Part shown: one piece after another, positions 5,848 to 63,016 of the stretch
Position numbering within the stretch: position 1 is the stretch's first letter
Layout: the number at the start of each line of letters is the position of its first letter
Source of the DNA: Candidatus Onstottus frigus
Lineage (GTDB): Bacteria > Acidobacteriota > Blastocatellia > UBA7656
Reading direction: 5' to 3'
Length of the DNA: 64,000 bases
Assembly (NCBI GenBank): GCA_038040445.1
Contig: JBBPIG010000007.1
Coordinates: 74,310 to 138,309, forward strand
Program-made: the position numbers and the translations under genes
The notes under the pieces: generated by a model
The model's input: only the letters and a program-made list of their open reading frames with translations
Told to the model about the DNA's origin: nothing
Database searches by the model: none

Positions 5848-5893
5848 GTAGCTGAAGCAGTTTTCGTTTGGGCGCAGAGGGTCAATTCAAAAC

Positions 5894-8169: not shown

Positions 8170-8192
8170 GCAAAGAGTTAAAGGAAGAGTCC

Positions 8193-8675: not shown

Positions 8676-8748
8676 GTCGATCCAATCGCATGAGTGAGAG
8701 CGAAATGCGCAGCAATGGATGGCGAAGCGGTTTCCGGGCTCCGGAAAT

Positions 8749-8896
8749 ACCCCAACTGAAGTTGGGGGACTTCGTCCTCCGTTGTCGTTCTTGTTTCATC
8801 CATCTCGCCCGCGAGATGGATGAAAAGTCTGGGGACCGAGATAGGCCGAGTTCCGACGTAGGTTGAACCTAACAATCCCCCAACTGAAGTTGGGGG
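8749..8896. repeat. Two copies of REP-like palindrome 'ccccaactgaagttgggg' (8749-8768 and 8876-8896) flanking a second hairpin (catccatctcg...cgagatggatg)
   Basis: Stem ccccaact/agttgggg. A third extended copy lies at 14190-14217 with a partial at 14231-14250. Confidence 0.6.
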
Positions 8897-8918
8897 GATT
8901 TCCAAAGTCCCGCGCGAC

Positions 8919-9992
8919 TCACCTGGCTATTCGAAGCATCACCTTCACCAGCACAGGGGTGCTGGGCGTGGCGTTCAAACGCAAGATCGTTTGAGGAAGC
9001 GGATCCCCTTGGGTCAGCATCCGCGAGCCGTCTCCGCCTGCCGACTTTTCTGCTTTGGTGTATGGCAGGCCCGCGCCGCCCTCAAGCTCGAATTGCTCGG
9101 CGCGCCCACCCCACTCCTTCTCCCACTGAGCCAGCTTCGCGGACGGCACGTTGACGGGCTCCGAACTGATGGGCAGGGCAGCGAGCGGTTGAGGTGCCAC
9201 GATCAAGATCAGCACTTCTCCACTATGCTCCGGGCGGCTGCGCGTCAGGGTGAAGTATGGCGGGTTGTCTTCCTGAGCCGGAAACTCGATGACCCGTCCC
9301 CCGACCACCGAGTTGTTTCCGCCGCGCGTGCGCGAGGTAGGGAAGATCAAATACGCGTCGCCAAGGCTGCCGTCGGCGTATTGCTCTCGATCGATGACGT
9401 AGAGATATCCTGTGCTCGGAGACTCGATGCTGACGCGAACACGCTCGCCTTCGCTGACGCGCGTATCGGCTTCGATTCGCTCGGCTGTCCATTCGGCGGT
9501 CTTTGATGCCTGGTGCTCGAGAATCCTTGCGTCTTTGTTGTCGGCAGGCCGCACCGGGCGCAAGCGCCACAGCGTTACGCCGATGACTGCTTCCGATGCC
9601 GACGCCGATTTGCGCAGCTCGGAAGATGAGGCCGAGCCGGTAACCGAGCGATAGGTTCGCGGTTGTTGAGGATCACGTGGCGTAGTGGATGCAGGCCGGC
9701 TCTCTTCGAGTTTCTTGACGTGCAGCCCCCGCGTCTGGTCCTGCTGTTGGGCGGAGGAATTGCGGGCGAGCAGGATCACTGCGCAGATGATGATCGCTGC
9801 CGTAGCTCGAGATGCCAGCCGGCGGCGCGCGAGGGAAGCCGCCAAAGATTCGTGATGAGCGCCGCGGTCCGCGTCACGGTCTCCTAACGATAGACCACGG
9901 CCCCGCCACGCGTGGGCCGCGTAGCGGTTACCAGGATTCCTGCTGAACATCTTCGATGAGAGCGAAGATGTACGCCGGGTCATATTCCACAT
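8919..9992 (-). CDS. DUF4384-domain protein (secreted/anchored), downstream partner of the caspase-WD40 gene
   Basis: 'GERVRVSIESPSTGYLYVIDREQYADGSLGDAYLIFP' matches the DUF4384 core (GYLYV...LFP). Hydrophobic anchor 'AAIIICAVILLA'. The start may be the ATG at 9950 instead. Confidence 0.5.
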   Translation of the reverse strand: MWNMTRRTSSLSSKMFSRNPGNRYAAHAWRGRGLSLGDRDADRGAHHESLAASLARRRLASRATAAIIICAVILLARNSSAQQQDQTRGLHVKKLEESRPASTTPRDPQQPRTYRSVTGSASSSELRKSASASEAVIGVTLWRLRPVRPADNKDARILEHQASKTAEWTAERIEADTRVSEGERVRVSIESPSTGYLYVIDREQYADGSLGDAYLIFPTSRTRGGNNSVVGGRVIEFPAQEDNPPYFTLTRSRPEHSGEVLILIVAPQPLAALPISSEPVNVPSAKLAQWEKEWGGRAEQFELEGGAGLPYTKAEKSAGGDGSRMLTQGDPLPQTILRLNATPSTPVLVKVMLRIAR

Positions 9993-10052
9993 CGAATCTC
10001 CTCAAGAGGGCCAGGTGTTTATCTCTAAGCAAGACGGCTGTAACTCCATAGA

Positions 10053-13000: not shown

Positions 13001-14018
13001 GCGAGTGGCGGTCGGGACTGAAGAGAAACTTGCCGGCGAACATGATCATTGAGGAATCAGACTGGTTGGCTAACATTTTTGGAGCGGCAAAGCTCTTCAG
13101 CTCGCGCCCGGCGGCGACATCCCAGATTTTCATCGAGGCTTCGTCGCGAATCGCCAGCCACGCGCCGTCGCTGCTGAAGGCAAGGGTCGCCGAAGAGCCA
13201 GGGGATACGCCGAATTGCGTCGGGCCTGACGAGACCTTCAACGTCTGCGCTTTTCGTCCGCTCGCAACTTCCCGGAGTGTAATCTGTAGCGTTGTTTCGG
13301 CGGCGCCTTTACGCGAGACCTTCATGGTTTCGGACAGCACCGCCAACAAGCTCCCGTTAGGACTCAGCGCAATCCCATTCTGCGCCTCGATGCGGTCCTC
13401 CTTGTCGAAGGTGACCGGTTGCAGTTCCCGGCCGGCGGTAGTATCCCAGAGCCGCACCGCCGAACCGTCCGGGTTCGCTGCGGCCAGGATACGCCCATCT
13501 TCACTAAGGAGAGCCGCGAAGAAATCTTTGGCCGTCGGTATGTTCGTGCTGGCTAGCTCGCGGCCTGTCTCGACCTCCCATCGCCTGACTTTGCCGTCAG
13601 CAATCGCGGTCAGCGTGCGCCCGTCTACGCTGAACTTGAAAGGCCGCGTCAATGAGTTGGCGCCCATGGATGGAATGCCGCTGTCGAGGTGGCGCAACAA
13701 CCGGCCTGAAGCGACCTCCCACAACTTGATCGCATTGCCGATCATTCCCATCGAGGCGAGCAATCGGCCATCGGGACTGAAACTGAGTTGAGTTTGCGGA
13801 GACGTGATCCCCGCCTGTAGCAAGATCTCCGGTTTGCCCGCGCCCGATTTTGTTTGATTCGGCGTGGCATTTGCCGGGTTCGGACGAACGCCGAGGCCTC
13901 GGTCGTCTTTGGGCTTCGACTCCTGGGAGGCTGAGAGAGTCAAAGCGGCGATCGAATTGATTACCAGAAGAGCAAGCATCGGCAAGCTCAAGAAACGAGA
14001 TCGAGCGAGATGAATCAT
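10053..14018 (-). CDS. Secreted WD40-repeat protein with C-terminal caspase (peptidase C14) domain
   Basis: Signal peptide. At least 12 WD40 blades ('IKLWEVASGR', 'IKLWDAATGREVRTL', 'TIKLWDLSSGRELRTL', etc.). C-terminal caspase His/Cys dyad motifs 'VVFYAGHG' and 'MVIDACNSG'. Low-complexity P/Q/M/K-rich linker mid-protein. Confidence 0.85.
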   Translation of the reverse strand: MIHLARSRFLSLPMLALLVINSIAALTLSASQESKPKDDRGLGVRPNPANATPNQTKSGAGKPEILLQAGITSPQTQLSFSPDGRLLASMGMIGNAIKLWEVASGRLLRHLDSGIPSMGANSLTRPFKFSVDGRTLTAIADGKVRRWEVETGRELASTNIPTAKDFFAALLSEDGRILAAANPDGSAVRLWDTTAGRELQPVTFDKEDRIEAQNGIALSPNGSLLAVLSETMKVSRKGAAETTLQITLREVASGRKAQTLKVSSGPTQFGVSPGSSATLAFSSDGAWLAIRDEASMKIWDVAAGRELKSFAAPKMLANQSDSSMIMFAGKFLFSPDRHSLSVVSESNKINLVDASSGATLHTLAGHSGTIISVGFSADSKLIASSGTDNQIKLWDAATGREVRTLSGSAMPVSDLAFSPDGKSLSLAGHQAVSSWELTTGGVRRAVALPDDYARHRQTGMQERGCLLSRDGKFVIAGSSSQPLAKVWEVATGRELPNVSLTQGKQLGNAAFNRDGSVVALVERDIQKPGAPGPQASQQSSPQAPVNMPAQPIVMPDMSKIMEQMQKDPKKMQEMMKKAEEAMKKGDMSASMSVLDSLGVTAPITKAANKSSTNLRLLDVATGRQLQAIPLARSGLLNQMMGGFEAISGSILSFSPDGRIVASASGFDSPITLREVSTGQELRTLKSTFSMMVFSLAWSADGRRLASAHSGSKRNLAAANAADTFSFDDLTFSIKVWDTQTGSELNSLAGHNNFVNGLAFSPDGRMLASGGFDSTIKLWDLSSGRELRTLAGHGGSIVAVDFSSDGRFVVSGSDDGSARLWNTQTGALVATMVSLNKGDDWLVVTPDGLFDGSPGGWNQILWRFSPNTFDVSPVEIFFTEYYYPGLLPDILAGKKIAAAADISQKDRRQPKLSLALADPQNAASVSTRTLKIKIDVGEAPAGARDVRLFRNGSLVKLWRGDVLKGQPNATLETTISVVAGPNQLTAYAFNRDNVKSPDAALAVNGADSLRRASTLHVLAVGVNQYANSDYNLKYAAADARAFTEEVERQQRKLGGYGQIEVTTLLDRDATKANLLYALKRLAGSPDAKPPSGAPAALEKIKAAEPEDAVVVFYAGHGTAQEQRFYLIPHDLGYAGARTEIDEAGLKTILSHSVSDLELEQACEGIDAGNLLMVIDACNSGQALEAEEKRRGPMNSKGLAQLAYEKGMYILTAAQSYQAAMEAEQLGHGYLTYALVEEGLKSAAADGEPKDGQVMLREWLDYATDRVPRMQEAKMKEGRGLKHKVAFVEGEEKVEDVDKRSVQRPRVFYRRERETQQMIVAKP

Positions 14019-37917: not shown

Positions 37918-38148
37918 ATGCTTATGGAAAACAGATCCGAATATGAAGGAAAGGTAGTGAATGGGGTCGTCGTCCTGGAGAACGGTGACTCTTTGCCAGA
38001 GGGCACCCGAGTGCGGGTTTTGACTGTGGAGCCGACCGGCGAGACGCTAGGTCAGCGGCTGCTTAAGTTCGCCGGGACCGCGAAAGGACTACCGAGCGAC
38101 ATGGCAGAGAATCACGATCACTACATTCACGGGCGCCCTAAGAAATGA
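37918..38148 (+). CDS. VapB-like antitoxin (small beta-rich DNA-binding protein)
   Basis: 76 aa, overlaps the downstream PIN gene by 4 nt; 'KVVNGVVVLENGDSLPEGTRVRV' is an AbrB/SpoVT-like swapped-hairpin-type segment. Confidence 0.5.
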   Translation: MLMENRSEYEGKVVNGVVVLENGDSLPEGTRVRVLTVEPTGETLGQRLLKFAGTAKGLPSDMAENHDHYIHGRPKK

Positions 38149-38546
38149 GAACGCTGTTCGCCGATACCTTCTATTACATCGCTCTGCTTAGCCCAACTGA
38201 CGCGGCGCATACTCGCGCTGTCGAATTCACAAGAACCTACAATGAGTTGATGGTCACGACAGCGTGGATCATCACTGAACTCGCCGATGGTATGGCTGAC
38301 GCCAGTAACCGCCAGGCTTTCACGAGTTTCTACGACGCACTGCGAGTCGATCCACAGGTTTCAGTAGTCCAACCGGAACAGGACATCTTCAATGAAGGAA
38401 TGGAACTATACCGCACCCGTCCCGATAAGGACTGGTCCCTCACCGATTGCATTTCGTTTGTTGTCATGCGACGGCAGGAGATCACTGAAGCGCTAACGGG
38501 CGACCACCACTTCGAACAAGCCGGGTTTAAAGCGCTGTTAAGGTAG
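38145..38546 (+). CDS. vapC: PIN-domain toxin (VapC-like)
   Basis: 'LFADTFYYIALL...D......TD.ISFVVMRR.EITEALTGDHHFEQAGF' carries the conserved PIN acidic residues in order (D, E, D, D). Confidence 0.8.
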   Translation: MRTLFADTFYYIALLSPTDAAHTRAVEFTRTYNELMVTTAWIITELADGMADASNRQAFTSFYDALRVDPQVSVVQPEQDIFNEGMELYRTRPDKDWSLTDCISFVVMRRQEITEALTGDHHFEQAGFKALLR

Positions 38547-38607: not shown

Positions 38608-39015
38608 ATGCTGCACATTCACAACGGAGACTCCACCGCAGGAACATTGATGCGGTTTCCTTCGGTGAAGAACGGTCTGGGGCGCGTCGAGAACACGGCG
38701 TTGGAGATGATTTCAAACGGCGCGAGCGGATTCAAATCACTGTTCCCGAGATTCGGAAAGGCCGAGCCCGTCTACGGAATGGGAGATTCGCAGTTCTGGT
38801 GCGCGATGAAGCGCCTCGGTGAAGCCAAAGATCCGCTGATCACGTTAAGCGGACTCGGTGACGACCCACCATTCAAGTCGACTCGCTACTACGACGTTTC
38901 GTTTGAGCTGACTGAAACTGGACGAGCAGTGCTTGCGGGCGAGCGCGACTTCAGCGAGACCAACGGCATAGATCTTTGGTTAGGTGGCGTTCACGTCGTT
39001 GACGGCGCGGGGTAG
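38608..39015 (+). CDS. Hypothetical protein, possibly DUF1835-like (N-terminal 'MLHIHNGDSTAG')
   Basis: The N-terminal motif resembles DUF1835 starts; shorter than typical family members. Confidence 0.35.
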   Translation: MLHIHNGDSTAGTLMRFPSVKNGLGRVENTALEMISNGASGFKSLFPRFGKAEPVYGMGDSQFWCAMKRLGEAKDPLITLSGLGDDPPFKSTRYYDVSFELTETGRAVLAGERDFSETNGIDLWLGGVHVVDGAG

Positions 39016-39262
39016 AGATGGGATGAGCGCAACGGATTGACGCGACGCAGCGCCTAATAAAGCCGAAGAGACGAGGGAATGAAAAAGGATGAACAGCGCA
39101 TGCTCTTTCGAGCATCCTGTTCATCGGCTTTGCCTTAGAAACGCAATCTGCCTCAAAAAGAATTCGTTTGCCCCAAAAAGACTCTGGTGCCTTATCAAGG
39201 GGTGTTGCTGGTTTTGGTTGTCTGCTTGATGCGGGGAGTCCCGCGCGAGTAAGCTTCGCGGC

Positions 39263-40864
39263 ATGGGCCGTCGGGAGATCGCCACGCTTATTGGCAGCGG
39301 TGCTTTTGCGCTGGTTGTCAGTCTCATTGTCAGCGCATTTCAAGTTGCGGGAGTTATCAATATGACTCTCGCGCACCTATTGATAGCAGCGGCGTGGTCG
39401 GTCGCAATGATTGCGGTCTGGACATCGGAGAAGCTATCCAATAAGTCAAGACGACATACTAGGGTGGTTGTCTTAGTGACCGGGCTCGTTTTGGCGGTTC
39501 TCTTGGTTGGTGTTGACCGATGGATGGTTAAGGAGAAGGCCGCACAGGACGCTAATGCGGCGGCTACGAATACATCTCCATCGGAAACACACACCGATTC
39601 AACGGCCAAACCGCCGACTTCAGTACCTGAGCCTAAGCCCTCGGCAGCGGATGCAAGTGACCCGCTAGACCTGGAACCGGTCTACAAAGCGCCGAAAGTC
39701 GAAGTGCCGCGAATAACGGACCCGCCGCGTTCACCGTTTAAAGAGACTCTACCTCATATCGTTGAGGGAGACTTTCCCCAAGAGGTCCTGAAAGCCACTA
39801 AACCTGTCTTGGTGTTCTTTTGTGCAGAACCGTATGAATCGTGTGATCAGACGGCCCCGGCTGTTCTAGCAGCCGTTGGCGACCAACGGGATAAGATCAA
39901 ACTCGTGGCGCTCGACGTGCGGATCAACAGAGTAGTGTCTACCCAGTACGGTGCAACGTTCTCCACTATTCCACTCCTCATGATCTTCAAAGACGGCAAA
40001 CCGGTTGGTCAGTTCTTCGGGGCAGCATCAAAGCAAACCGTAACTCGCCTCATTGAAAAACCTGAGGACTTCAAGATTCAGTCAAGTCAGGCAAGAGAGA
40101 AGGAACCCTCGCAGAAGGATAAGGATCCATTAGTGACAATACCAACCGTCCCAGAAAGTGATTTTGACGATGAGGTGCTCAAGTCTTCAATCCCTGTCCT
40201 TGTGTACTTTCACGCGAGTTTCCAAGACGCATGTAAGGTAGTGTCCCCGTTGGTCGCGCAAATAGCAGAGAGCTACAAGGGTAAAATCAAAGTGCTACAG
40301 ATTGATTCCAGCATTCATCGAAATATCTCTAGCAAATACAACGCAGGCCCTCTTAGCGCTCCCGTGCTTATTTTGTTCAAGGATGGTGCAGCGCGTGGCC
40401 GAATCAAGGGCACCACGTCAATGCAAACTATTGCTCGTTTAATCGAGCGGCCCGAAGATTTCAAGATTGAGGTTGCTGAAGATCGAAGACGAGTAGAGCC
40501 AGAGCCTCCATCTCGCGTGTCCGTGATCCTAGCTGCAATACCTGATGTCCTAGAAAGCGACTTCGACTCAGAAGTCAAATCTGCTATTCCGACTTTGGTT
40601 TATTTCTATGACGACGACGATAGAGTTTGCAAACTTATGGCCCCAACTGTTGTGGAGATAGCAGGACTGTATAAGGGCAGAATCCGAGTTCTAAGACTGG
40701 ATGCGTCTATCAACCAAAGTACTCATTACAGGTATCGAGCGGGCGGTTCCTGGGGTCCTGGTCTGCTTCTCTTCAGGGGCGGAAAAGTGAAGGACCGTAA
40801 GGATGGCGCATTCTCCAGAGCTGCTATCGTCAACATGATTGATAAGGTCCTTGCAGCAAAATAG
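39263..40864 (+). CDS. Membrane-anchored protein with three tandem thioredoxin-fold repeats lacking a canonical CxxC
   Basis: N-terminal TMs, S/T/P linker, then three ~140-aa repeats each with 'KPVLVFF / IPVLVYF / IPTLVYF ... C...VV... IK(V)..LD...N......Y...S.P.L..F+DG ... RLIE+PEDFKI'. The CGPC position is replaced by 'CAEPYESCD', 'FHASFQDACK' and 'YDDDDRVCK'. Confidence 0.6.
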   Translation: MGRREIATLIGSGAFALVVSLIVSAFQVAGVINMTLAHLLIAAAWSVAMIAVWTSEKLSNKSRRHTRVVVLVTGLVLAVLLVGVDRWMVKEKAAQDANAAATNTSPSETHTDSTAKPPTSVPEPKPSAADASDPLDLEPVYKAPKVEVPRITDPPRSPFKETLPHIVEGDFPQEVLKATKPVLVFFCAEPYESCDQTAPAVLAAVGDQRDKIKLVALDVRINRVVSTQYGATFSTIPLLMIFKDGKPVGQFFGAASKQTVTRLIEKPEDFKIQSSQAREKEPSQKDKDPLVTIPTVPESDFDDEVLKSSIPVLVYFHASFQDACKVVSPLVAQIAESYKGKIKVLQIDSSIHRNISSKYNAGPLSAPVLILFKDGAARGRIKGTTSMQTIARLIERPEDFKIEVAEDRRRVEPEPPSRVSVILAAIPDVLESDFDSEVKSAIPTLVYFYDDDDRVCKLMAPTVVEIAGLYKGRIRVLRLDASINQSTHYRYRAGGSWGPGLLLFRGGKVKDRKDGAFSRAAIVNMIDKVLAAK

Positions 40865-40917
40865 TGCACGGAAATTATGATGCGGCGGTTAGCTTCTTGT
40901 ATTCAAGATTCGAGTTC

Positions 40918-41994
40918 CTAGCTTGAACGCTTCGCGAAGGCAGGGTGCGTCTTTTCGAAAATCACGTCAAACTTCAAGGGTGCTGGAGTCCTTTTCCTTG
41001 TACGTCGAGCATCCTCCCAAGCGGACAACGCGGCTTCGAGTGAATGGACTTGAGCCGATGTTACTGGCGACCCATAGAGCGAAGCAATCAATGCAGTCCG
41101 TGCGCTAGTGGCGGGAGCCTTGCCGCCGTTCTCCCATCCCTCGATTGCGGCGGTCTTCGCCTTATTCGCCTCCCTGTTGTTCGCGCAGAGGCCGGACGCC
41201 ACGAGACGAGGGACCATGCGAAGGATGCTGCCGAGTTGGTCGGCTTGTTTGAGAGCGTGCGCAACCGAATTCGACTTACGGCAAAGAGCCTGTAGCGCAC
41301 GAACGCTGCGCACCCCCTTGCGAACAAACGAAACAGCCACAGCAACGAGTCGGGTACTTACTCCGCTTCGAATAAAGACTGGCCGGCCTTTTCGCAAGAC
41401 AGGCTCGTTCGTTCCCGGCTTCAACTTCGCGCGCTTCGTTATTGCACAGATCATTTCTTCGGCTATCTTGTCATCTGCCCAGAAGGAATCCGCGTCGAAA
41501 CTGGCGCCTTGGGAGTCACGCTCGATCTGGAGGCGCTGAGAATACCACTTCGATACAATGCCAAACATTCCCTGGAAGTACTCGCTTCCGATTTCAGGAG
41601 GTCCGCACTCGACAAAAACAATCATCGCGTCGCGCTTTTTCTTTCGGGCTTGTTCGTGGCGTTTCTCGCGCGCTCGGGTGCTGGCAATTTCTGCCGCGCT
41701 GCGGCACGTATTGCTAGCGACGTGTTGATTGTAGTGACTCCCGATTGCTCTAAGGCCGCAACGCTCACAGGTACCGTATGCTGGATTCTCGGGGCAGACA
41801 TCTCTGAGGTGTTCTTGATAGTCGAATACTGGCACGAGTTCGCCACAGTATTCGCAGTCACGGTAGCGGGGGATGTTAGATTGTCCAGTTGGTTCACTCG
41901 CCTGTTCCTCATCAGGCGGTCTTGATACCCGTGAGGGGTCCATTCCAGTCTTCGTTCTAAACACCATCGCGAACTTTGATGCGCGCTTGTTCAC
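40918..41994 (-). CDS. Hypothetical cysteine-rich protein (N-terminal zinc-ribbon-like motifs), in lower-GC islet
   Basis: 358 aa; 'CEYCGELVP...CPENPAYGTCERCG...HYNQHVASNTC'. No known family recognised. Confidence 0.45.
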   Translation of the reverse strand: MNKRASKFAMVFRTKTGMDPSRVSRPPDEEQASEPTGQSNIPRYRDCEYCGELVPVFDYQEHLRDVCPENPAYGTCERCGLRAIGSHYNQHVASNTCRSAAEIASTRAREKRHEQARKKKRDAMIVFVECGPPEIGSEYFQGMFGIVSKWYSQRLQIERDSQGASFDADSFWADDKIAEEMICAITKRAKLKPGTNEPVLRKGRPVFIRSGVSTRLVAVAVSFVRKGVRSVRALQALCRKSNSVAHALKQADQLGSILRMVPRLVASGLCANNREANKAKTAAIEGWENGGKAPATSARTALIASLYGSPVTSAQVHSLEAALSAWEDARRTRKRTPAPLKFDVIFEKTHPAFAKRSS

Positions 41995-42092
41995 GGATAC
42001 CTCCGAACTTATTTATATCGCTTGCTCTGAGCCGTTCACAAGCAGACAATGACAGACGAAATCGGCTCGCCTAACGTCGGCCTAATTACCCG

Positions 42093-42878
42093 ATGAACAG
42101 CCGCGCAATCTCTACGCGGTTGGCGAGTCGAAATGAACTAGAGACTTGCCGCCGAAGAGAGGGCGAGACGATGCGAATTAGAAGTCCGCTTGAATTTGCC
42201 AATGGACACGCATGCCTAAAGATTCAGCAGGCCGATCGCTTGGAGGACGAGCGATTATCAGATTTGGTCGCGCTCGGCATGCCTACAGACGGTCAGGTCC
42301 GGCTCACAATAAAGGGCGAGTTTTTTGATCCTGCCTTCGCCGGCTATACGCTAGAGCTTTATGGGTTTTGGCCTGAAGACTTGGAGCCGAATCGGCGTGA
42401 TCAGAGAATTGGGGCTCCCGATCATACGCTTGTCAATTACCCATCAGAGGCGAGCGGGTACATCTTCAAGGCGTGTTATTACTTCTGGCTACAGAGAGTA
42501 AGGTATGGGAACGAGACAGTACGCGAGTTAAGCTGGCATCCTGACGTGCGCGACTACCTATCCATTAAGCGCAACGTGTGGGTCAAGTATTCAGAACCTG
42601 CACGGGCTCTGCTACGCCACGTACAGCAGCGCGGACGGCGCGAAGGGACCGGCTACTTCAAGAGCGATGCGAGTTTCATCAACGCACTTAGCGAGGTGCT
42701 AAGAGATCAAGACCGGAGACTGTCCGAATCGAAGGGCCTGTACTTCTTATCACGAAATCAATTTTGGCAAGCAAAGCCCCTAACGATGAGGGAAAGCCAA
42801 GCCAGAACGAAAACGTTGAGGAACTGGCTTACACGATGTGGCCTCACTTGGGATCAGGCAAAAGGCAAGTATTGCTAG
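42093..42878 (+). CDS. Hypothetical protein, tandem paralog A
   Basis: 261 aa; C-terminal 'GTGYFKSDASFINALSEVL...NWLTRCGLTWDQAKGKY' parallels paralog B. Confidence 0.45.
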   Translation: MNSRAISTRLASRNELETCRRREGETMRIRSPLEFANGHACLKIQQADRLEDERLSDLVALGMPTDGQVRLTIKGEFFDPAFAGYTLELYGFWPEDLEPNRRDQRIGAPDHTLVNYPSEASGYIFKACYYFWLQRVRYGNETVRELSWHPDVRDYLSIKRNVWVKYSEPARALLRHVQQRGRREGTGYFKSDASFINALSEVLRDQDRRLSESKGLYFLSRNQFWQAKPLTMRESQARTKTLRNWLTRCGLTWDQAKGKYC

Positions 42879-42891
42879 GGCGAACTAACAA

Positions 42892-43689
42892 TTGAAAGGC
42901 ATAAGCGCTGAAATTCCGGCTCCGCATTGGAAGGGAGACCTTAAAGAATATCTCCAATGGCTAGCACCAAGGGATCAGCGTCTTGTTAGGACGCTCAAAA
43001 CCTCAGGCTTACCGTCGAAGGGTGAGTGTAGCCTAACAGCAACGCCGGGAGAGAACTACGGAATCCGCTATAAGGACTTCGCGGTCAACAGTCTCTCGGT
43101 GTTGTTGGGCAATCGGGATGACTTCGACCTGAACAAGATGGGGGGCATGTTCTGTGTTTCGGGTTCGGGCTCGGAAGGCTGGAGAATCTGGAGAGTGTGG
43201 CTACTCGAAGTTGCACATAACGATCCGCAGCGAGGCTCGTGTATTCGTTATCTCTGGGATCGGGCCAGCAACGGCTCACGCATTAGCATCGAGCATATTA
43301 ACGACGACTTAGCTAGGTCAGAGCGCAAACAACTCGGACGAACTAGCGTCGTTACCCAGTTGAAACAGCTCGTATCCGGCCTTGAAATCATCTCGATGGA
43401 AGAAGCCAAATCGAAGCTTTCGGGTCGGCCGGAAGGAACCGGTTGGTTCAAAAGCCTTAAGGATTTTCGTATCGCTCTAAAGGAGGTATTGGCAGCGCAG
43501 AATAGCCGCCCGACTCAGTTGAACGTACTGAAACTTCTTGACAATCACCGTTTCTGTCAAATAAAAGCTCGAAAGCCACGCAATCAAAGTCATACCAAAT
43601 TACTGAGACATTGGCTTCATAAGGCTAAGATCAAAAGCTACAACAAAGCTCTGCAAATGTACTGGAAGCCATCGAAAAGCGGAAAATAA
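42892..43689 (+). CDS. Hypothetical protein, tandem paralog B
   Basis: 265 aa; C-terminal 'GTGWFKSLKDFRIALKEVL...HWLHKAKIKSYNKALQMY'. Confidence 0.45.
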   Translation: MKGISAEIPAPHWKGDLKEYLQWLAPRDQRLVRTLKTSGLPSKGECSLTATPGENYGIRYKDFAVNSLSVLLGNRDDFDLNKMGGMFCVSGSGSEGWRIWRVWLLEVAHNDPQRGSCIRYLWDRASNGSRISIEHINDDLARSERKQLGRTSVVTQLKQLVSGLEIISMEEAKSKLSGRPEGTGWFKSLKDFRIALKEVLAAQNSRPTQLNVLKLLDNHRFCQIKARKPRNQSHTKLLRHWLHKAKIKSYNKALQMYWKPSKSGK

Positions 43690-44356
43690 TTCAACCGCCG
43701 TTTCTTCCTGCGGAAAATAAGTCATACCGAGTTTCTTCCCTATATCGTGAACCGCCCGAACGTGCTGTAATCGGATCGTTGAAGGTTTCGTTTGTGCTGC
43801 CAACTAGTGTAATCGAGCCTAAGAATTTTTTCACGAAGCAGAGCCGGTGAGCATATCGGAGTTCGCCCGATTGTTCGCCGGCTCTTGCTATTTCTGGAGG
43901 GTTGCCTATGAAAGCAAAACGACCCCGGTAGTTCGTAGCTACCAGGGCCGTTGAAAACCAAATTTCTTATTAGCTGGCTTGCGAGCCAGCCTGCATTGTA
44001 ATCCCACCGAGGCCGGTTCGCAACCAAAATTTTTCACCTTCGAACTGAGCCTGCCATTTCTTGGCGGGTAGGGAGACCTATGCAGAAAACGAAGAGACGC
44101 GGCCAAGGCCGCAGACCAGTGCGGGCATCGCCCCGCATTCTCACTCGAAACGGACAGCGCAAGACTCGATTGAACTGCGCGGTTCGATGCTTCTAGTGAA
44201 GTCAGCTAGCAGCGGGCCGGGGAGCCAACGATTCTCCCCGCGCCCGCGCGATTGCTACGGCTATGCGTCATTCTGGCGATCATACCACCCTTGCATGCCG
44301 CCGAGCGTTATAGTACGTATCCACTTCGGGCTATGACTTAATTTCACTATTTCAAC

Positions 44357-45079
44357 GTGCGCAGACATTCTCAATCCTCTCTGATAAAGCATGGAACGGC
44401 CATCGTGATCCTTCGAACCGCGAACGATATTATTGTAGGTGCCGATAGCAAAGTTAATTATGCCGTAGCAACCGGGAATGTTGAGACGACGTGCAAGATA
44501 TTCCAGGTGGGGCGGGTTTTTGTCGCCTCCGCTGGAATGATAGAGAGCGCGGAATTCGAATATGACGCGCGGACAATCGCTACTGCCGCGATCCAACAAG
44601 GTAGCAGGATTCTTGAAATGATGGATCGGTACCAAGATGCCATCTCTCAACCGCTGCTAGAGGCCGCCGGCTCCTTGCACGATCAGAATCCAGCCTTATA
44701 CCAAAGCATGATCGGCGATGGAGAAGTTCTCGATACGGCCTTCTTTGGAATCGAGAATGACGTTCCTGCTCTAATCTACAGTCAGTTTGAAATTACATTC
44801 TCGCCCGACCGAGACGTTATGAAAGTTGTGCCCGGAATCCTGGGGGTAGATCACTACTTGTTGTGGGGACATCCCCGGCCACTAAAGAAGTTTCTTGATA
44901 GCCATCACGGCTACTTCGATGAGGTCGGAGACGTGAATGCGATTAGGAACCTCATTCAAATTGCAATTGACGATAAGCCCGGTAAGGTCGGGAAGCCCAT
45001 TGTAATTATCCGCGTCAATACAGAGGGCGCAGAATGGGTCATAGAATCTCCGTGTTGTCCTCCAATAGAACCATACTAG
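44357..45079 (+). CDS. Hypothetical protein with possible proteasome-beta/HslV-like Ntn-hydrolase fold (Anbu-like size)
   Basis: 240 aa; 'HGTAIVILRTANDIIVGADSKVNYA...CKIFQVGRVFVASAGMIESAEF' resembles the T-T-I-V...G.V.A.D.R...K.h...h.aG..aD pattern after a short propeptide. Inference only. Confidence 0.3.
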   Translation: MRRHSQSSLIKHGTAIVILRTANDIIVGADSKVNYAVATGNVETTCKIFQVGRVFVASAGMIESAEFEYDARTIATAAIQQGSRILEMMDRYQDAISQPLLEAAGSLHDQNPALYQSMIGDGEVLDTAFFGIENDVPALIYSQFEITFSPDRDVMKVVPGILGVDHYLLWGHPRPLKKFLDSHHGYFDEVGDVNAIRNLIQIAIDDKPGKVGKPIVIIRVNTEGAEWVIESPCCPPIEPY

Positions 45080-45182
45080 GATTTTGGGGCAGAACTCGCG
45101 CTTGCCTCGTAAATGGGGCCATAATCGGCTTTTCAAGGCAAAGCCCTGTTCATCCTTTTCTTCTTTATCGGAATCCGTCTGA

Positions 45183-47429
45183 TTATCGTCGCGGACCGCG
45201 AGGCGGACGCCGGTCGCGGTCACCGCCGGGTCGCGGCGGGCGCGGACCCCGATCATCCCGTGGACGATCATCCCGAGGCGGACGATCTCCGCCGCCGTCG
45301 CGATCAGAGTCAGGCTGGCGCTCTTCTTCACCTGTTTCGCCGCGCTCATCTCTCAGCACTGCCTTGCGTGATAATCGTATCTTGCCCGATGGATCGACGT
45401 TGATCACTTTCACCAGCAACTGCTGGCCTTCTGTAAGCTCGTCGCGAACGTTCTGCACTCTGTAATCAGCAATCTCGGAGACATGCAACAAGCCGTCGGT
45501 GCCCGGCATGATCTCGACAAACGCCCCAAAGTCTGCGATGCGCTGGACTGTGCCCAAATAAGTTTTGTTCACCTCGGGGACAGCGGTGATCTCTTCGATC
45601 AAGCGCTTGCAAGCCTCGGCTTTCTCGAGATTGGCCGAGGCAATGTTGATGCGACCAGTGTCTTCAACGTCGATCTTGCAGCCGGTTTTTTCGACCAGGC
45701 CGCGAATTATCTTACCGCCCGGCCCAATGACCTCGCGAATCTTGTCGATCGGAATCTGAACCGTAAGGATTCGCGGAGCATACTTGCTGATTTCAGCGCG
45801 CGGCTCCGCAATGGCCGCATCCATCTTTTCCAGAATGTAGAGACGCCCATCCTTCGCCTGCTGCAAGGCGTCGGCGAGAATCTGAGCGTTTATGCCCGTG
45901 ACTTTGATATCCATCTGCAGCGCTGTGATACCCGTGCGCGTTCCCGTGACCTTGAAGTCCATGTCGCCGTAGTGATCTTCAGCGCCGGCGATGTCGGTCA
46001 AAATCGCGTATTTGTTGCCTTCCATCACCAGTCCCATCGCAACGCCGGCGACTGGAGCTTTCAGCGGGACGCCTGCATCCATCAACGCAAGCGAGCCTCC
46101 GCACACCGATGCCATCGAGCTGGAACCATTCGATTCGGTGATATCGGAAACAACGCGCGTGATATAGGGCCAGTCTGCTTCCGCGGGAAGCAGCGGCTCG
46201 AGCGCCCTGCGAGCAAGCGCGCCGTGGCCGTACTCGCGGCGACTTGTCGAGCCCGTGCGGCCAGTCTCGCCAACTGAGAAATGCGGAAAGTTATAGGCAA
46301 GCAGGAAACGGCGCTTGATCTCGCCTTTTTCCAAGTCGTCCATATACTGGACGTCTTCGCTGGTGCCCAAGGTGGCGGTGACGATTGCCTGAGTCTCACC
46401 GCGGGTGAACAACGCCGAACCGTGCGCACGTGGGAGCCAACCGACCTCGATCGAGATCGGCCGGATCTGGTTGAACCGGCGGCCGTCAGGACGATGACGA
46501 CGATTCAGAATGTCCTCGCGGAAAATCTTCTCCTTCAAATGATCGAAGATCTTTCCGGCCATCTTTCGTTTGTCCGGCTCCTCCTCGGGATAAGCCGAAA
46601 CGGTTTCGTCTTTCAGTTTGTCAACCAGCGTATAGCTTTCAAGCTTGCCGTGTTTTGTTGTGTCGAGCGCATCGCGCAAGCCGTCAGTGATTCGGGTTTC
46701 GATCTCCGACAGCATCGCTTGATCGAGTTCGGGCTTAACAACTTCGCGCTTGACGATGCCGAGCTTCTGATACATTTCTCTCTGAAGCCGGCACAGCTTC
46801 TTTATTTCGTTGTGGCCGAACATCAGCGCTTCGACCATCACGTCTTCGGCGACTTCGCTCGCGCCCGCTTCCACCATCACGATCGCCTCTTCGGACCCCG
46901 CGACGATCAGATTCAACGGTGAAGCACGTGTTTGATCGTAGGTGGGATTGACTATGAAACGATCCTCGATCAGCCCCACGCGAACGCCGGCGATTGGTGT
47001 CTCGAGCGGGATGTCCGAAAGGTAAAGCGCGGCTGACGCTCCGGTTATCGCAAGGACGTCGGAGTCGTAGTTCTCATCGGCCGAAAGCACGAAGGCTATC
47101 ACCTGTGTTTCGCTGTTGTATCCCTTGGTGAACAATGGCCGGATCGGCCGGTCGATTAGCCTCGAAGTCAGCGTCTCTTTCTCGGACGGACGACCTTCGC
47201 GTCTAAAGTAGTTGCCGGGAATGCGCCCGGCCGCGTAACCGTACTCGCGGTATTCAACCGTGAGCGGGAAAAAATTTATGCCCTCGCGGGGCTTCGTGCC
47301 GACCACGGCTACCAGAACCACTGTGTCTCCATAACGAACTATCACAGCGCCATCGGCCTGCTTGGCGACTTTGCCGGTCTCAATCGAAAACTCTACTCCC
47401 CCTAGCTGAACTGATTGCTTCAACTCCAT
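45183..47429 (-). CDS. pnp: Polyribonucleotide nucleotidyltransferase (PNPase) with an R/D/P-rich C-terminal extension
   Basis: 'MELKQSVQLGGVEFSIETGKVAKQADGAV...' plus RNase PH, KH and S1 domains in order. GGAGAG RBS. The ORF track's longer N-terminus (to 47642) lacks an RBS and reads through the leader. Confidence 0.95.
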   Translation of the reverse strand: MELKQSVQLGGVEFSIETGKVAKQADGAVIVRYGDTVVLVAVVGTKPREGINFFPLTVEYREYGYAAGRIPGNYFRREGRPSEKETLTSRLIDRPIRPLFTKGYNSETQVIAFVLSADENYDSDVLAITGASAALYLSDIPLETPIAGVRVGLIEDRFIVNPTYDQTRASPLNLIVAGSEEAIVMVEAGASEVAEDVMVEALMFGHNEIKKLCRLQREMYQKLGIVKREVVKPELDQAMLSEIETRITDGLRDALDTTKHGKLESYTLVDKLKDETVSAYPEEEPDKRKMAGKIFDHLKEKIFREDILNRRHRPDGRRFNQIRPISIEVGWLPRAHGSALFTRGETQAIVTATLGTSEDVQYMDDLEKGEIKRRFLLAYNFPHFSVGETGRTGSTSRREYGHGALARRALEPLLPAEADWPYITRVVSDITESNGSSSMASVCGGSLALMDAGVPLKAPVAGVAMGLVMEGNKYAILTDIAGAEDHYGDMDFKVTGTRTGITALQMDIKVTGINAQILADALQQAKDGRLYILEKMDAAIAEPRAEISKYAPRILTVQIPIDKIREVIGPGGKIIRGLVEKTGCKIDVEDTGRINIASANLEKAEACKRLIEEITAVPEVNKTYLGTVQRIADFGAFVEIMPGTDGLLHVSEIADYRVQNVRDELTEGQQLLVKVINVDPSGKIRLSRKAVLRDERGETGEEERQPDSDRDGGGDRPPRDDRPRDDRGPRPPRPGGDRDRRPPRGPRR

Positions 47430-47819
47430 ATCTGTCTCCCTTCTCTCCGCTGCGCGCCTCTCCGCTTTTGATCTGAGAGCCACAGCCTGCGTGCGTACCG
47501 CATGCGGCTCAGTTTTGTAGCGCGCTGTTGCAGTAACTGAAATTTCCGGCTTGCAGTCTACGTTCTGCAAGCAAAGTGTTGCTGTGAAAAGCAACAAGGC
47601 CACGGTGAGCGGCAAAGCCTGCCGGCTCGCTCCCGTGGCCATCGATGAACTGAATTGTCTGAACTGTACGTGGCGCGTCCGGTTTCCATCGCCTGGTCTT
47701 TTGCCGCCAGGACTTCACACCTAATCGAGTTATTTCTTGGTTGCGCGCCAGAGAACCGACAACTGACCGGACCGCTCGAAACGGCTGCACTCGGTTCCGG
47801 CCTTTCGCTGAGGTGATCT

Positions 47820-54892: not shown

Positions 54893-56272
54893 ATGGCAAA
54901 GTCCAAGTCTCCTAAGCTTGTCTTCGTCTGTCAACAATGCGGCTCGCAGCAGCCGAGATGGATGGGCAAATGCCCCGACTGCGGCGAGTGGAATTCGCTG
55001 GTTGAAGAGAAGTCCACGAGCGCACACCCGGAGTCTTCCCCTCGCGGCGGGTTGTTTCGCATGCGGGAAGTCGCGCCGGTCGCTTATCAGGATATCGAAA
55101 GTCAGAACGACGCGCGCCAGCCCTCGGGCATTGAAGAGTTCGATCGAGTGCTTGGCGGCGGAATAGTTCCAGGCTCACTTGTGCTGATCGGCGGCGATCC
55201 CGGCATCGGCAAATCAACGCTGCTGCTCGAAGTGGCGGACAAGCTTTCGATCACCTGCGGCAGAGTCCTGTACATCTCGGGCGAAGAGAGCGAGCGGCAG
55301 ATCAAGCTGCGCGGCGAGCGGCTAGGCATCAATCCCACGGGTCTGTACCTCTTGCCCGAAACGTGTCTCGAACGAATCTTTCAAGAGATCGACCGGCTTG
55401 ACCCGCAAGCGGTAATCGTCGATTCCGTGCAAACCGTATTCTCGATGAAGCTCGAATCCGCGCCGGGATCGGTTTCGCAAGTCCGCGAAGTAGCGGGGCA
55501 GTTTTTGATGCTTGCTAAGAACCGCTCGGTGCCCGTGTTCCTGATCGGGCACGTCACCAAAGACGGGGCGATCGCCGGACCGAAAGCGCTCGAGCATATC
55601 GTCGATACGGTCCTCTACTTCGAAGGCGAGCGCCATCATAATCATCGCATCATTCGCGCGGTGAAGAACCGCTTCGGCGCGGCGAATGAAGTCGGGGTGT
55701 TCGAAATGACCAGCCGCGGGCTGGTGCCTGTGCTCAATCCCTCCGGGTTGTTTTTGAATGAGCGGCCCGTTGGAGTGTCGGGCTCGGTGGTGACGGCTTG
55801 CGTGGAGGGCACACGGCCGATGCTGGTCGAGCTTCAAGCGCTGGTCACCTCAACGAAATACGCGACTGCTCGACGGATGACACAGGGCGTTGATGCGAAC
55901 CGCGTTTCGCTGCTGATGGCGATGCTCGAAAAGCGAGTAGGCATGCACGTACTCGGCGACGACGTTTTCGTGAATGTGGCAGGTGGCATGACGATAGACG
56001 AACCGGCGGCCGACCTGGGCATTGTCGCAGCGATTGCATCGAGCTTCCGCAATGTTCCTGTTGACGAACGCTCGGCAGTGTTTGGAGAAGTCGGGTTGGC
56101 CGGCGAAGTGCGCGCGACAAGCCAGGCTTCAGTGCGAGTGCGTGAAGCTTACTCAATGGGCTTCCGCCGCTGCGTGATTCCTCACGGGAACCTCGCCGGG
56201 CTCGAGTACGACGACGGGATTGAAGTAGTTGGGGTGCGCAACGTCGGTGATGCGCTCGAGGCGTTGTTTTGA
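54893..56272 (+). CDS. radA: DNA repair protein RadA (Sms)
   Basis: N-terminal zinc finger 'CQQCGSQQPRWMGKCPDCGEWNS', Walker A 'GGDPGIGKSTLLL', KNRFG motif 'AVKNRFGAANE', Lon-like C-terminal domain. Confidence 0.9.
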   Translation: MAKSKSPKLVFVCQQCGSQQPRWMGKCPDCGEWNSLVEEKSTSAHPESSPRGGLFRMREVAPVAYQDIESQNDARQPSGIEEFDRVLGGGIVPGSLVLIGGDPGIGKSTLLLEVADKLSITCGRVLYISGEESERQIKLRGERLGINPTGLYLLPETCLERIFQEIDRLDPQAVIVDSVQTVFSMKLESAPGSVSQVREVAGQFLMLAKNRSVPVFLIGHVTKDGAIAGPKALEHIVDTVLYFEGERHHNHRIIRAVKNRFGAANEVGVFEMTSRGLVPVLNPSGLFLNERPVGVSGSVVTACVEGTRPMLVELQALVTSTKYATARRMTQGVDANRVSLLMAMLEKRVGMHVLGDDVFVNVAGGMTIDEPAADLGIVAAIASSFRNVPVDERSAVFGEVGLAGEVRATSQASVRVREAYSMGFRRCVIPHGNLAGLEYDDGIEVVGVRNVGDALEALF

Positions 56273-56439
56273 TTTGCAGGTTTTTTCCGATCAATTGCTG
56301 AATCAAAATCCACTAAACGAAACGTCCACTTAACAGTTAGCTTCTACGGGACTGCAGTCGTGTGGAAGTGACGCCCGCTGGGTCAGAACCCCAAAACGTT
56401 CAGCGAGCACGGTCAGCAGTTTGACGTTAAGGCCGGGTC

Positions 56440-56901
56440 TCAAAGTGAGGATGTGATTTCCGCAAGCTTAACCGAAATCTCTCTTGATGCTGCTTCCTGG
56501 GCTTCTGAAAGCAACGCCGTCATACTGTCAGACAGATCAGCCAGACAAAGTTCGATCTCCTGCGGTAGTCGGCCACGCTGTTGTTCACTCATGGAGTAGT
56601 CGTAAATATCTTTGTCAGCCAGGATCATCAGCTTCTGGGGCGCTTCCGAAAGTATAAGAAACATGATGTCGGAATGAATCTTCCTCATCTTGGACTTGGC
56701 GAAGCCTCCTTTCTTCGCGCGCCCACTGTTTGCCGATATGCAACCAACGATCTGACCGTCATTGGATACTGCGTCAAACGCGAAGAAACCGTTGTTTCGT
56801 AAGGGAGCAATCTTTTTGGTAAACACTTGACCGTACTTTCGATGAAGCCATTCCGCCCGAATGTACTCCTCGACGATAAGGAATGATTTTGAAACAGCCA
56901 T
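56440..56901 (-). CDS. Hypothetical protein in low-GC islet
   Basis: Start at internal ATG 56901 ('MAVSKSFLIVEEYIRAEW...'). ~47% GC versus ~60% in the flanks. No motif recognised. Confidence 0.4.
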   Translation of the reverse strand: MAVSKSFLIVEEYIRAEWLHRKYGQVFTKKIAPLRNNGFFAFDAVSNDGQIVGCISANSGRAKKGGFAKSKMRKIHSDIMFLILSEAPQKLMILADKDIYDYSMSEQQRGRLPQEIELCLADLSDSMTALLSEAQEAASREISVKLAEITSSL

Positions 56902-57136
56902 GTTTGGTCTCCAGGACCATGGTAGACGATCCCAATTCCAGGTCAATCGTTTCGACAACTGAACATGTGCTGCGCAAACTGGACTTGCCACGTTTGAACT
57001 GACATATCGAGGAGCAGTTCTGAAACAAAACATATCCGTTGCGACGAACTATCTACTAGATAATAAGGGGCCTGTGATGTAATAGATATGGGGGTTTGTC
57101 ACTTAAAAAGTGAAACGCAATTCGGCCTCTGTTCTT

Positions 57137-58098
57137 CTATTCGACGGGCAAGAGCTTCCAAGCTGGCAGCCAGCCGGTCTTGCCCTTATAGGCTCCGTCC
57201 AGGATGCGCACCCTAATCAGGCATTCCGCAGCAAGCTGTCGTGGGTATTGATCCGACTGCCCGCGGATCTTGGCGAGCTCACTTTCCAAGTGCATTTTGA
57301 AGTAGGAAAGGGAGGTTTCAAGTATTTTCACCTTAACTTCGACCGGAACAAGCAGCAAATTACCTCCGTCTGTAAGTTCGTTAATGCCTTGTGAATCTTT
57401 TGCAGCTACAGATTTATTATAATCATCGTACGAAGACGAATACACTGCCATGACAACGCGGGGTCTGGAGTCCGTTTCCTCGTTTTGTCTGGCCTTGAGG
57501 TCGGAGTCTACAACCCGAGCTACGCGCCCCGGTTCAATAGTCATGCTGACATCGAGCTTATTTGCTCGCAGTCCTGAGGCTACTGCTACTGACAACGCCC
57601 AAATTCCGCGCTGAGCTTTCTCTGCCTCTCGCTCGGCTGCGCGTACGTCGCGCGCATACTTGAACGGGTTGTCCGTGTCGGTGAGACAGCAACCCTGTCG
57701 GACAATCTCGAGATTTATAAATAATCGATCTGGCATACGATAGATGTAGACCATGGCATTGCCATCACTATCTACCGCCAAGTCAGGCTCCAACTCAATC
57801 AATATGTGTGCCCTGCGATTAGCGAGTTTAGGCAATTAGTCGCTTGAGAAGCGTTGAATCGCGCATTAACGCCGATGAGCCGCACAACACTCTCTTTTCC
57901 GTGCAGCATGAGCACAGCTCTTGCGCCATCGAGTACTCGCAACACCTTCCAGACACTGTCGGAGGTTTTTGTTTTGGTCTGAGAGACTCCTAGACTTGGC
58001 GAGAAAACACTCAGGATGAGAAAACCCGCTGCTAGGTGTTTCTTCATTACTACCTCGCTATCTAGACACAGGGCTGAGGCGTCACTCCAAAGTGACAT
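57137..58098 (-). pseudogene. Thermonuclease (SNase-like) gene disrupted by a frameshift
   Basis: ORF 57799-58098 encodes a signal peptide plus the SNase N-terminus ('KVLRVLDGARAVLMLHGKESVVRLIGVNA'). The overlapping ORF 57137-57835 in another frame continues with the SNase C-terminal motifs ('MVYIYRMPDRLFINLEIVRQGC...ARDVRAAEREAEKAQRGIWA'). A sequencing error cannot be excluded. Confidence 0.5.
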
Positions 58099-61993: not shown

Positions 61994-62531
61994 AGAATTG
62001 GAATATCTGACCGAGCCATTTTACAGCCAGATTGCGCGATGTAAAGAACCAATTATGGGCCAATTCTCATAGGCCAATCAATGGGCTGTGTGGCTCCGAT
62101 GTATTGGATATCGGTTTTTGAAAACGAACGGAGGTCGCTTAGTTTCGGATAGGTGATTTTGGATTACGCTTGTGTGCTACTGATGGGCTTATCGGAATCG
62201 TTAGATAACAGCCCGGACTTCGCGGGCCGGGTAAGATACTGTCTGGGCCAAACCGAAAAACACCAAAGGGGATGACGCCGCCCCCGTGGCCTCATCCCCC
62301 TCAGTTTATTGTTGCTTTGTCTGTCGCTTCTCTCAGTCTTGCGATGACCGGCGGAGCCCCCGTTCCCCCAACCACCGCCTAACTTTTTAAAGCTACGCAG
62401 TCACATTGGCAATGTTTGTGCCAGCGTTTCTGCCCCGCGCAGGTAGCCGTAACTTGTGCGGTTGAATGAAACCGTGTCTGTGCTCTTCTTTGAGCTGCCA
62501 AAACTTGTCAAGTAGCGAGTGACGAATCGCG

Positions 62532-62688
62532 GCAAAGAGCAAAGAGCAAAGAGCAAAGAGCAAAGAGCAAAAGGCAAAGGGCAAAGGGCAAAGAGCAAAG
62601 CGCAAAGGGCGGCGGTTCGACATCTTCTCTAGCTATGTTCCTCTTTACTCTTTGCTCTTTGCTCTTTGCCCTTTGCGCACTATAATGA
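62532..62688. repeat. Inverted arrays of the heptamer GCAAAGA (about 11 copies forward, about 6 reverse-complement copies)
   Basis: 'gcaaagagcaaagagcaaagagcaaagag...' at 62532-62608 and 'ctctttgctctttgctctttgccctttgc' at 62641-62688. Upstream of the yacL-like gene. Confidence 0.8.
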
Positions 62689-63016
62689 ACGCCGTCAGGG
62701 CCCGCCCTTGACACGACTGGGAGTCAGAACGGATCGCGGCCTCGATCAAATCCTATTCACTAATTGTTTCGCGCCGCTTTCCCGCGACTTGTTCGATTCT
62801 TATCTTCTTTAGTGTTCCAGTCGTAATCAAGCCGGAGCGAACAGGACAACTTGAATTCCAGATTGCGGTGATCCTATTTGTTTGATGTCGCAATCGCAGC
62901 TTAGTCGGAGTCGCGACCAAAGGGCCGCGAATTGATCTTTCAAAACTCAGCTTAACTATTCGCAGCGTCGTAAGGCAGGAACGGCTCGAGCGATAGATAA
63001 GACGTACGGAGGATAT

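Follow-up and report, generated by a model that had tools for sequence, protein, structure and literature searches.

The DNA studied is a 64-kb window (the whole stretch that was analysed) from an acidobacterium of the class Blastocatellia; searches of the host genome for transposases and element ends were confined to this window. Between positions 39126 and 45145 lies a 6,020-bp element that is bracketed by inverted repeats and carries five genes. The first encodes a membrane-anchored protein of 533 amino acids (aa) with three thioredoxin-fold repeats (39263–40864, plus strand). It is followed by the gene of a cysteine-rich zinc-finger protein, Cys358 (40918–41994, minus strand, 358 aa), two tandem paralogs, par261 (42093–42878, plus strand, 261 aa) and par265 (42892–43689, plus strand, 265 aa), and the gene of a proteasome-like N-terminal nucleophile (Ntn) hydrolase, Ntn240 (44357–45079, plus strand, 240 aa). 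The original prediction, made from the sequence alone, had described the last four open reading frames (ORFs) as a GC-poor islet at 40900–45100. All four are found there, and the GC content of this region (52.3%, against a window mean of 56.5%) is the 14th lowest among 598 sliding 4.2-kb windows. The extent of the islet, however, needs correction. The 4.2-kb window with the lowest GC begins at 39801, and the compositional anomaly reaches left to ~39.1 kb, where it takes in the thioredoxin-repeat gene (50.9% GC); the Cys358 gene, at 55.7%, is near the genome average and is not itself low in GC. A windowed tetranucleotide analysis places the greatest deviation in the entire 64 kb at 40001–44000. 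The GC and tetranucleotide extremes thus fall together with the inverted-repeat bracket, and the foreign composition of the islet is explained by the insertion of the element.

The terminal inverted repeats face inward, are imperfect and measure about 55–70 nucleotides (nt), reading GGCTTTGCC...TGCCCCAAAA. They were delimited by reading both ends and by aligning them with copies in related metagenomic contigs, which gave a six-end alignment. The left repeat (the ‘a’ end, 39126–39182, plus strand) reads inward GGCTTTGCCTTAGAAAC...TCTGCCTCAAAAAGAATTCGTTTGCCCCAAAAAGAC and is 89% identical to one end of a sibling element on contig L014; the right repeat (the ‘b’ end, 45081–45145, minus strand) reads inward on the minus strand GGCTTTGCCTTGAAAAGCC...GAGGCAAGCGCGAGTTCTGCCCCAAAA. 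The bracket first showed as two short inverted matches around 39.1–45.2 kb, and each of these motifs occurs only twice in the window, against ~0.1 occurrences expected by chance. An end-profile search of 1.48 Mb of Acidobacteriota sequence returned six ends only, so that the terminal repeat is no general repeat of intergenic DNA. Directly outside each tip is one copy of an exact 9-bp direct repeat, CTGTTCATC (39117–39125 and 45146–45154).

The insertion site is a transcription terminator shared by pnp and an unannotated 135-aa ORF (orf135, 38608–39015). The left part of this split bidirectional terminator occupies 39081–39125, its last 9 bp being the left copy of the target-site duplication. 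The right copy lies at 45146–45160 together with the rest of the displaced terminator arm and a T-run, 22 nt from the pnp stop codon. In-silico excision of the element and of one repeat copy brings AAAAAGGATGAACAG...CTGTTCATCCTTTT together in a hairpin (−30.3 kcal/mol) that is flanked by A- and T-runs and lies 22 nt past the pnp stop codon. Orf135 and pnp share this rebuilt hairpin as their bidirectional terminator, and a strong hairpin is present at an equal distance past the pnp stop in three relatives (L017, L019 and L024). An inverted match between 39083–39099 and 45143–45159 was considered as part of the terminal repeat and rejected; its halves correspond to the arms of the host terminator that the insertion split. 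Rfam has no match in 38–46 kb, and a promoter and terminator scan gave background level. None of 80 Acidobacteriota pnp loci has an islet gene near pnp; since these loci show no synteny beyond pnp, no true empty site was recovered.

Two sibling elements were found in metagenomes related to the window. The L014 element (1572–11197, 9,626 bp) has the same ends as the window element and its own exact 9-bp duplication, CCGCTGCAT. The chance of an exact 9-mer next to both ends is ~4 × 10−6 per locus, and it is seen twice independently, in the window and in L014. Horizontal acquisition of the islet, originally proposed from its composition and orphan content, is therefore shown structurally, by inverted ends and an exact target duplication, and not by composition alone. 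A third inverted pair of these ends brackets 3.6 kb in contig L003.

According to Pfam, none of the five cargo genes of the window element contains a transposase domain, and tblastn with the L014 transposase found no homolog in the window. The L014 element encodes a 414-aa protein with SWIM and DDE_Tnp_1 domains. The annotated proteins closest to it are IS5-family transposases, among them IS903B, at 23–27% identity. The likeness extends to the ends: the terminus of an annotated IS903B copy reads GG(C/T)TTTGTTGAATAAATC, that is, GG(C/T)TTTG..., and the tip GGCTTTG is common to the window element. A 9-bp target duplication is a hallmark of IS903. The elements differ from the IS903 group of the IS5 family in several respects. 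The classic IS903 repeat is 18 bp, whereas the ends described here exist in two length variants; the cargo is large for a mobile insertion cassette or IS903-group element, with five genes in 6 kb; the candidate transposase of L014 has an N-terminal SWIM finger and the low identity to known IS5 transposases given above; and all three elements share a zinc-finger gene. A mobile insertion cassette is defined as terminal inverted repeats around passenger genes with no transposase, and the transporter insertion sequence (IS) is defined in the same source (PMC3129680). The window element, with inverted repeats and passenger genes and no transposase inside, fits the former definition, and the L014 element fits the latter. 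Mobile elements are poorly annotated in Acidobacteriota, and the window element provides a sequence-proven, cleanly delimited IS cassette without a transposase that moves multi-gene cargo in this phylum.

The rightmost cargo gene encodes a true Ntn hydrolase of the proteasome β fold, very divergent from the proteasome catalytic subunit. Ntn240 has a 13-residue leader (MRRHSQSSLIKHG), the nucleophile Thr14, and the catalytic residues Asp30, Lys47 and Gly60, which are equivalent to Thr1, Asp17, Lys33(34) and Gly47 of the proteasome when Thr14 is counted as residue 1; the mature chain would comprise ~227 residues and includes a Cys46/Cys234 pair. These residues were assigned from a 110-member alignment, which was also the input for the AlphaFold2 model (with five close homologs alone, the predicted local distance difference test score, pLDDT, was 35). 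The predicted fold is an αββα Ntn sandwich of proteasome topology. Asp30 and Lys47 are the sole invariant columns of the alignment (110/110 each). Position 14 is Thr in 97 sequences, Ser in 10 and a gap in 3, and Gly60 is present in 95 of the 110. The HG|TAIVILRTANDIIVGADSKV...K pattern that first drew attention to this protein is present and is conserved among the homologs.

A profile search of the PDB returned 160 chains, all of them proteasome β subunits (one α), HslV or BPH, and the alignments of hidden Markov models match the Ntn240 threonine to the first residue of mature BPH, HslV and β2. BPH is also the best single PDB sequence match. A search of the PDB with the single sequence gave only a match to sphingomyelinase, which was judged spurious. 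Sequence likeness to β, HslV, BPH and Anbu (MEROPS T1, PF00227) is detectable over the first 50–85 residues alone (E ~10−4), and the Pfam Proteasome model is matched by 48 of the 110 relatives at E<0.1 (best 1.8 × 10−5). The kinship is one of remote homology, supported by the modelled fold rather than by a curated model. The proposal that the 240-aa protein is an Ntn hydrolase is thus upheld by the profile matches, the predicted fold and the conserved catalytic residues.

The Ntn240 precursor would cleave itself between Gly13 and Thr14. The freed α-amino group and the hydroxyl of Thr14, helped by Lys47, Asp30 and the oxyanion hole at Gly60, would then hydrolyse a peptide or amide bond. Self-processing, hydrolase activity and the nature of the substrate are what we infer. 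As to the start codon, L001 and L002 have an ATG aligned with the GTG at 44357, and the GTA(I/V)V motif is conserved; for these reasons the annotated starts of this gene are very probably wrong. Both the GenBank call (AABO57_09730, 224 aa) and the JGI calls start at Val17, which removes Thr14 (44357–44407; P0001 and P0004). This exposes a systematic annotation error, in which gene callers begin genes of this family downstream of the catalytic threonine.

Ntn240 belongs to a family that is larger than a word-indexed search would suggest. Such a search gave four relatives (4 clusters >60% identity among 5.8 billion), while an exhaustive profile search gave 1,506 representatives at E≤10−3 and 547 at E≤10−10, nearly all of them full length. 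The 110 aligned members fall into three groups according to what precedes the nucleophile. In 63 members a hydrophobic signal peptide runs right up to the threonine, with AxA, G or Q at its end; in 38 the leader is short and hydrophilic, and 33 of these carry Gly at −1; and nine have no leader. The window subclade is of the leader type. Gly-1|Thr1 is the processing site of proteasome β subunits, and the glycine at −1 in the leader-type members fits, by analogy, this mode of processing. The Cys46/Cys234 pair is ~95% conserved in the family. A second cysteine pair, absent from Ntn240, is present in 51 of the 63 signal-peptide members and in 13 of the 38 leader-type members. This distribution of leaders and cysteines suggests exported, disulfide-bonded enzymes whose N-terminus is made by signal peptidase, plus cytoplasmic, self-processing derivatives. 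In most of the wider family, signal peptidase would during export make the same N-terminus that autolysis would make in Ntn240.

To our knowledge, every characterised Ntn hydrolase of the proteasome family is either cytoplasmic and self-compartmentalising or, like connectase, a monomer. Comparison with the best-known members underlines the divergence of the Ntn240 family. HslV has an HslU partner, a threonine right after the initiator methionine and a subunit of ~175 aa, whereas Ntn240 has a 13-aa leader and a longer mature chain, with a long H2 and long strands in the model. The NCBIfam HslV and archaeal-β models do not match Ntn240, and the HslV model matches 4 of the 110 relatives, weakly. 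Anbu occurs in an operon with ATP-grasp, transglutaminase-like and alpha-E proteins (PMC5666114) and has a long C-terminal helix H5, whereas the Ntn240 model ends in strands and a tail and has no H5. The near-universal Cys46/Cys234 pair, the second cysteine pair of most members, the signal peptides ending at the threonine and the lack of an unfoldase or operon partner further separate the family from the known members of T1/PF00227. The lack of partners is consistent across the loci considered. As had been noted for the Anbu operon partners, no match to an Anbu or HslU partner family is found in the genes examined at 31.3–39.0 kb and 48.2–53.7 kb; no AAA+ gene lies in or beside the window element; and neither AAA+ genes nor Anbu operon domains occur in the window neighbourhood or in the Ntn-family loci inspected. 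Among eleven such loci there is no recurring neighbour, save one co-occurrence with Cys358 in L003.

A catalogue of proteasome homologs lists 22 further families (Fuchs, Alva & Lupas 2021; PMC8665760): WPH, PHI, AAH, CPH, PPH, RPC, DPH, PMI-1 to PMI-6, PHD, ACC, FC1 to FC5, GPH and DAH. It states propeptides for β and HslV only and never mentions signal peptides (PMC8665760). Set against these 22 families by description only, the Ntn240 family is apparently an uncatalogued variant, and the clade is not covered by any model in Pfam or NCBIfam. Searches of phages, plasmids and viral contigs with Ntn240 were negative, two other members had no phage match, and one of these also had no plasmid match; because three members of the clade thus lack a phage match, the phage-associated families AAH and PPH are unlikely homes for it. 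Cluster look-ups gave no informative names, and a search of the literature on secreted or defence-island proteasome homologs found nothing relevant.

At the family level, a broader scenario can be put forward tentatively, at somewhat worse than even odds. The family would be an undescribed clade of at least 1,500 clusters (50% identity) that is ancestrally extracytoplasmic, in which Thr1 is exposed by the Sec signal peptidase, not by autolysis, and the fold gains stability from one or two disulfides. With it, the proteasome family would have its first exported branch, and the window subclade would be secondarily cytoplasmic and self-processing, carried as IS-cassette cargo alongside a zinc-finger partner and perhaps serving as a proteolytic module in conflicts. 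If this is true, a clade in which more than half of the members have a signal peptide ending at the nucleophile would extend the proteasome family to the envelope or exterior, and the signal-peptidase route would be a second way to generate Thr1. Such proteins could yield new specific peptidases or ligases, as connectase did. The interest of the locus lies in these likely exported proteasome-like hydrolases at the family level, together with the cleanly resolved cassette.

Further loci of the family have distinctive surroundings. The same metagenome-assembled genome contains a second, 29%-identical member (L008, 4712–5521; P0171, AABO57_13260), which is of the leader type (...AYLSG|TTVVV) and adjoins a BTAD regulator and a LigD gene. 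A signal-peptide-type member in Spirosoma flavum (L011, 7203–12167) has a cI-like HTH/S24 repressor on one side and a tyrosine integrase on the other, at an apparent prophage edge by rplS, which is the classic place to find a moron or accessory gene. In two independent Terriglobia assemblies, a 170-aa ORF without a family (L009, 8876–9388; L010, 1203–1715) overlaps the 3′ end of the Ntn-family gene and may be its lineage-specific partner.

Cys358 is the sole gene common to all three bracketed elements. It contains two C2HC zinc fingers (residues 47–97), followed by a basic linker and, at the C-terminus, a conserved domain of ~200 aa without an assigned fold. The four genes of the islet had been described as lacking family signatures. 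This stands for par261 and par265, which are orphans, and fails for Cys358, which matches Pfam CEP104_ZnF (1.2 × 10−7; 32.3 bits against a cut-off of 27.4) and has a profile match to PDB 5lpi (7.8 × 10−4). Residues 46–100 align with the tandem C2HC fingers of CEP104; this zinc-finger array and the UBZ-type C2HC fingers are the nearest known counterparts. Cys358 differs from CEP104 in being bacterial and in that its fingers are joined to an unrelated C-terminal domain, which has no detectable homolog of known kind and which also occurs without fingers (P0166) and with an added RHH domain (P0162). Twelve homologs of Cys358 were found, 11 of them at 75–100% identity, and phage and plasmid searches were negative. 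A gene-sized unit (40912–42006) is 83–91% identical at the DNA level in five loci with unrelated flanks. Its homology begins at the Shine-Dalgarno sequence GGAGGT, and the conserved part is a bare ribosome-binding site and ORF without flanking repeats. A reading of this unit as an integron cassette with an attC site was rejected, given that the ends of the element are inverted and accompanied by a target duplication and that the unit has no repeats beside it. In L003, a 76%-identical homolog fused to an RHH DNA-binding domain lies directly after the Ntn gene and ahead of a trypsin-like protease. In L014, a Type ISP restriction-modification enzyme is followed 19 nt later by the Cys358 homolog, and a TIR-domain protein (12065–13012) is encoded just beyond the right end.

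We estimate a probability of about 0.8 that the window element is a transposase-less mobile insertion cassette with IS5/IS903-like ends that carries a true proteasome-β-fold Ntn hydrolase. On this reading, a non-autonomous element transposed into the 3′ arm of the orf135–pnp terminator hairpin, duplicating 9 bp of the target, and would have been mobilised in trans by an IS5-type transposase like that of the L014 sibling. Several observations weigh against this reading. Mobility in trans is assumed, since a transposase is absent from the window, which covers 64 kb of a 275-kb contig; a target-site duplication is missing from the L003 element; the terminal repeats are unusually long and imperfect for an IS5-type element; and the L014 transposase could belong to an unrelated nested IS, though no inverted repeats of its own were found. 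In addition, Ntn240 itself falls below the gathering threshold of the Pfam Proteasome model PF00227 (14.9 against 22.4 bits). Were the element autonomous, Cys358 would be the natural candidate for an unrecognised transposase or an essential accessory protein of transposition: no other gene is common to all three elements, it is in every case the second gene from an end and points toward that end, its fingers and basic linker would suit DNA binding, and its homologs are 75–89% identical in unrelated contexts. Such a role is nevertheless improbable. Homologs also occur without detectable ends (within ±10 kb in L013, and on the available contig in L015 and L016), the conserved unit is the bare gene described above, no transposase or recombinase family is detected in the protein, and the tips and the 9-bp duplication match the DDE chemistry of the IS5/IS903 type, for which L014 has a DDE_Tnp_1 protein. 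Still further from the evidence is the possibility that Ntn240 is an ordinary housekeeping HslV, Anbu or BPH in a slightly AT-rich stretch, with coincidental repeats and duplication. The fold, the catalytic residues and the best PDB match to BPH would agree with it, but it is already contradicted by the lack of an HslU, AAA+ or Anbu-operon gene nearby, by the failure of the HslV and archaeal-β models, by the scarcity of close relatives, by the absence of the gene from all 80 pnp loci and by the improbability of two independent exact duplications.

As to what the cargo does, the original prediction had suggested possibly another defence or toxin locus. Under such a proposal the Ntn hydrolase (in L003, together with the trypsin-like protease) would be the effector of an anti-phage module, Cys358 its sensor or regulator, and the element the vehicle that spreads it. 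The genomic company of these genes is suggestive: toxin-antitoxin pairs, restriction-modification genes and genes of prophage edges abound around family members. A VapBC pair adjoins the window element; L097 has DUF433/DUF5615 toxin-antitoxin genes, a MafB19-type deaminase and an MmeI-type restriction-modification enzyme; L009 has UPF0175/DUF3368 toxin-antitoxin genes and RepA; the Spirosoma member sits between repressor and integrase; the L014 element holds the Type ISP enzyme, with the TIR protein just outside; and AbiEii, Uma2 and Mrr adjoin other Cys358 homologs. Cys358 is, moreover, placed like an operon partner with different enzymes, and in L003 it is fused to the RHH domain. However, none of the four proteins matches a PADLOC model at E≤1, no neighbour of the Ntn family is conserved apart from the single Cys358 case, phage, plasmid and viral-contig searches were negative, and most of the family looks exported, which is ill-suited to an intracellular effector of abortive infection. 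Guilt by association in variable islands is, in general, weak evidence. A defence role is thus unproven, a contextual hypothesis only, and we regard it as rather unlikely.

The thioredoxin-repeat protein (Pfam Thioredoxin, 8.1 × 10−39, three matched stretches) has hydrophobic segments at its N-terminus and a linker rich in Pro, Ala and Ser. Judged by eye, the CxxC motif is degenerate in all three repeats (CAEPYESC, ASFQDAC and DDDDRVC); with these motifs apparently lost, the protein is probably not a classical oxidoreductase. The paralogy of par261 and par265 is real and, as had been noted, confined to their C-termini, which are 42% identical over 71 residues (E = 4 × 10−11; ~39% over 84–92 aligned residues) and share the motif GRxEGTG(Y/W)FKS...W-L, while the N-terminal parts cannot be aligned. 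Neither protein has a match in Pfam, PADLOC, NCBIfam, PHROGs or the PDB, and searches of metagenome and viral contigs for relatives were negative. The N-terminal half of par261 is weakly similar to a 343-aa protein of the L014 element (27% over 118 aa, E = 5 × 10−5), with which its 5′ region (76 nt) is also shared.

Between par265 and the Ntn240 gene lies an ORF-less spacer of 667 bp (43690–44356) that is strongly structured, with a fold z-score of −5.4 on the plus strand and −2.95 on the minus strand. It contains several GC-rich hairpins and, on the minus strand, a 14-bp terminator-like stem (43952–43918); a 31-nt tandem repeat spans 43679–43739. There is no Rfam match, and the spacer may represent a non-coding RNA, a regulatory region or the remains of a gene. 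Its last ~90 nt (44265–44356) are conserved as a 5′ region that accompanies the Ntn gene, DNA identity to L001 and L002 beginning at 44265.

To the left of the insertion, at a distance of ~0.6 kb, a VapB-like protein (76 aa) and a PIN-domain VapC (133 aa) are encoded by a gene pair with overlapping stop and start codons (37918–38546), after which comes orf135. On the right, the polynucleotide phosphorylase (PNPase) ORF (45183–47642, 819 aa as listed) has an N-terminal extension of ~70 aa that is unmatched in relatives, whose matches begin at about residue 66–81; the true start is probably the internal methionine before ELKQSVQLGG. The same protein has a C-terminal tail of ~60 aa rich in Arg, Gly, Asp and Pro. 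The window contains two more low-GC patches (50–52%), at 56000–58000 and 62000–63000. The former holds a 197-aa ORF without a family match and a protein with a partial staphylococcal nuclease domain, adjoining a radA-like gene (54893–56272).

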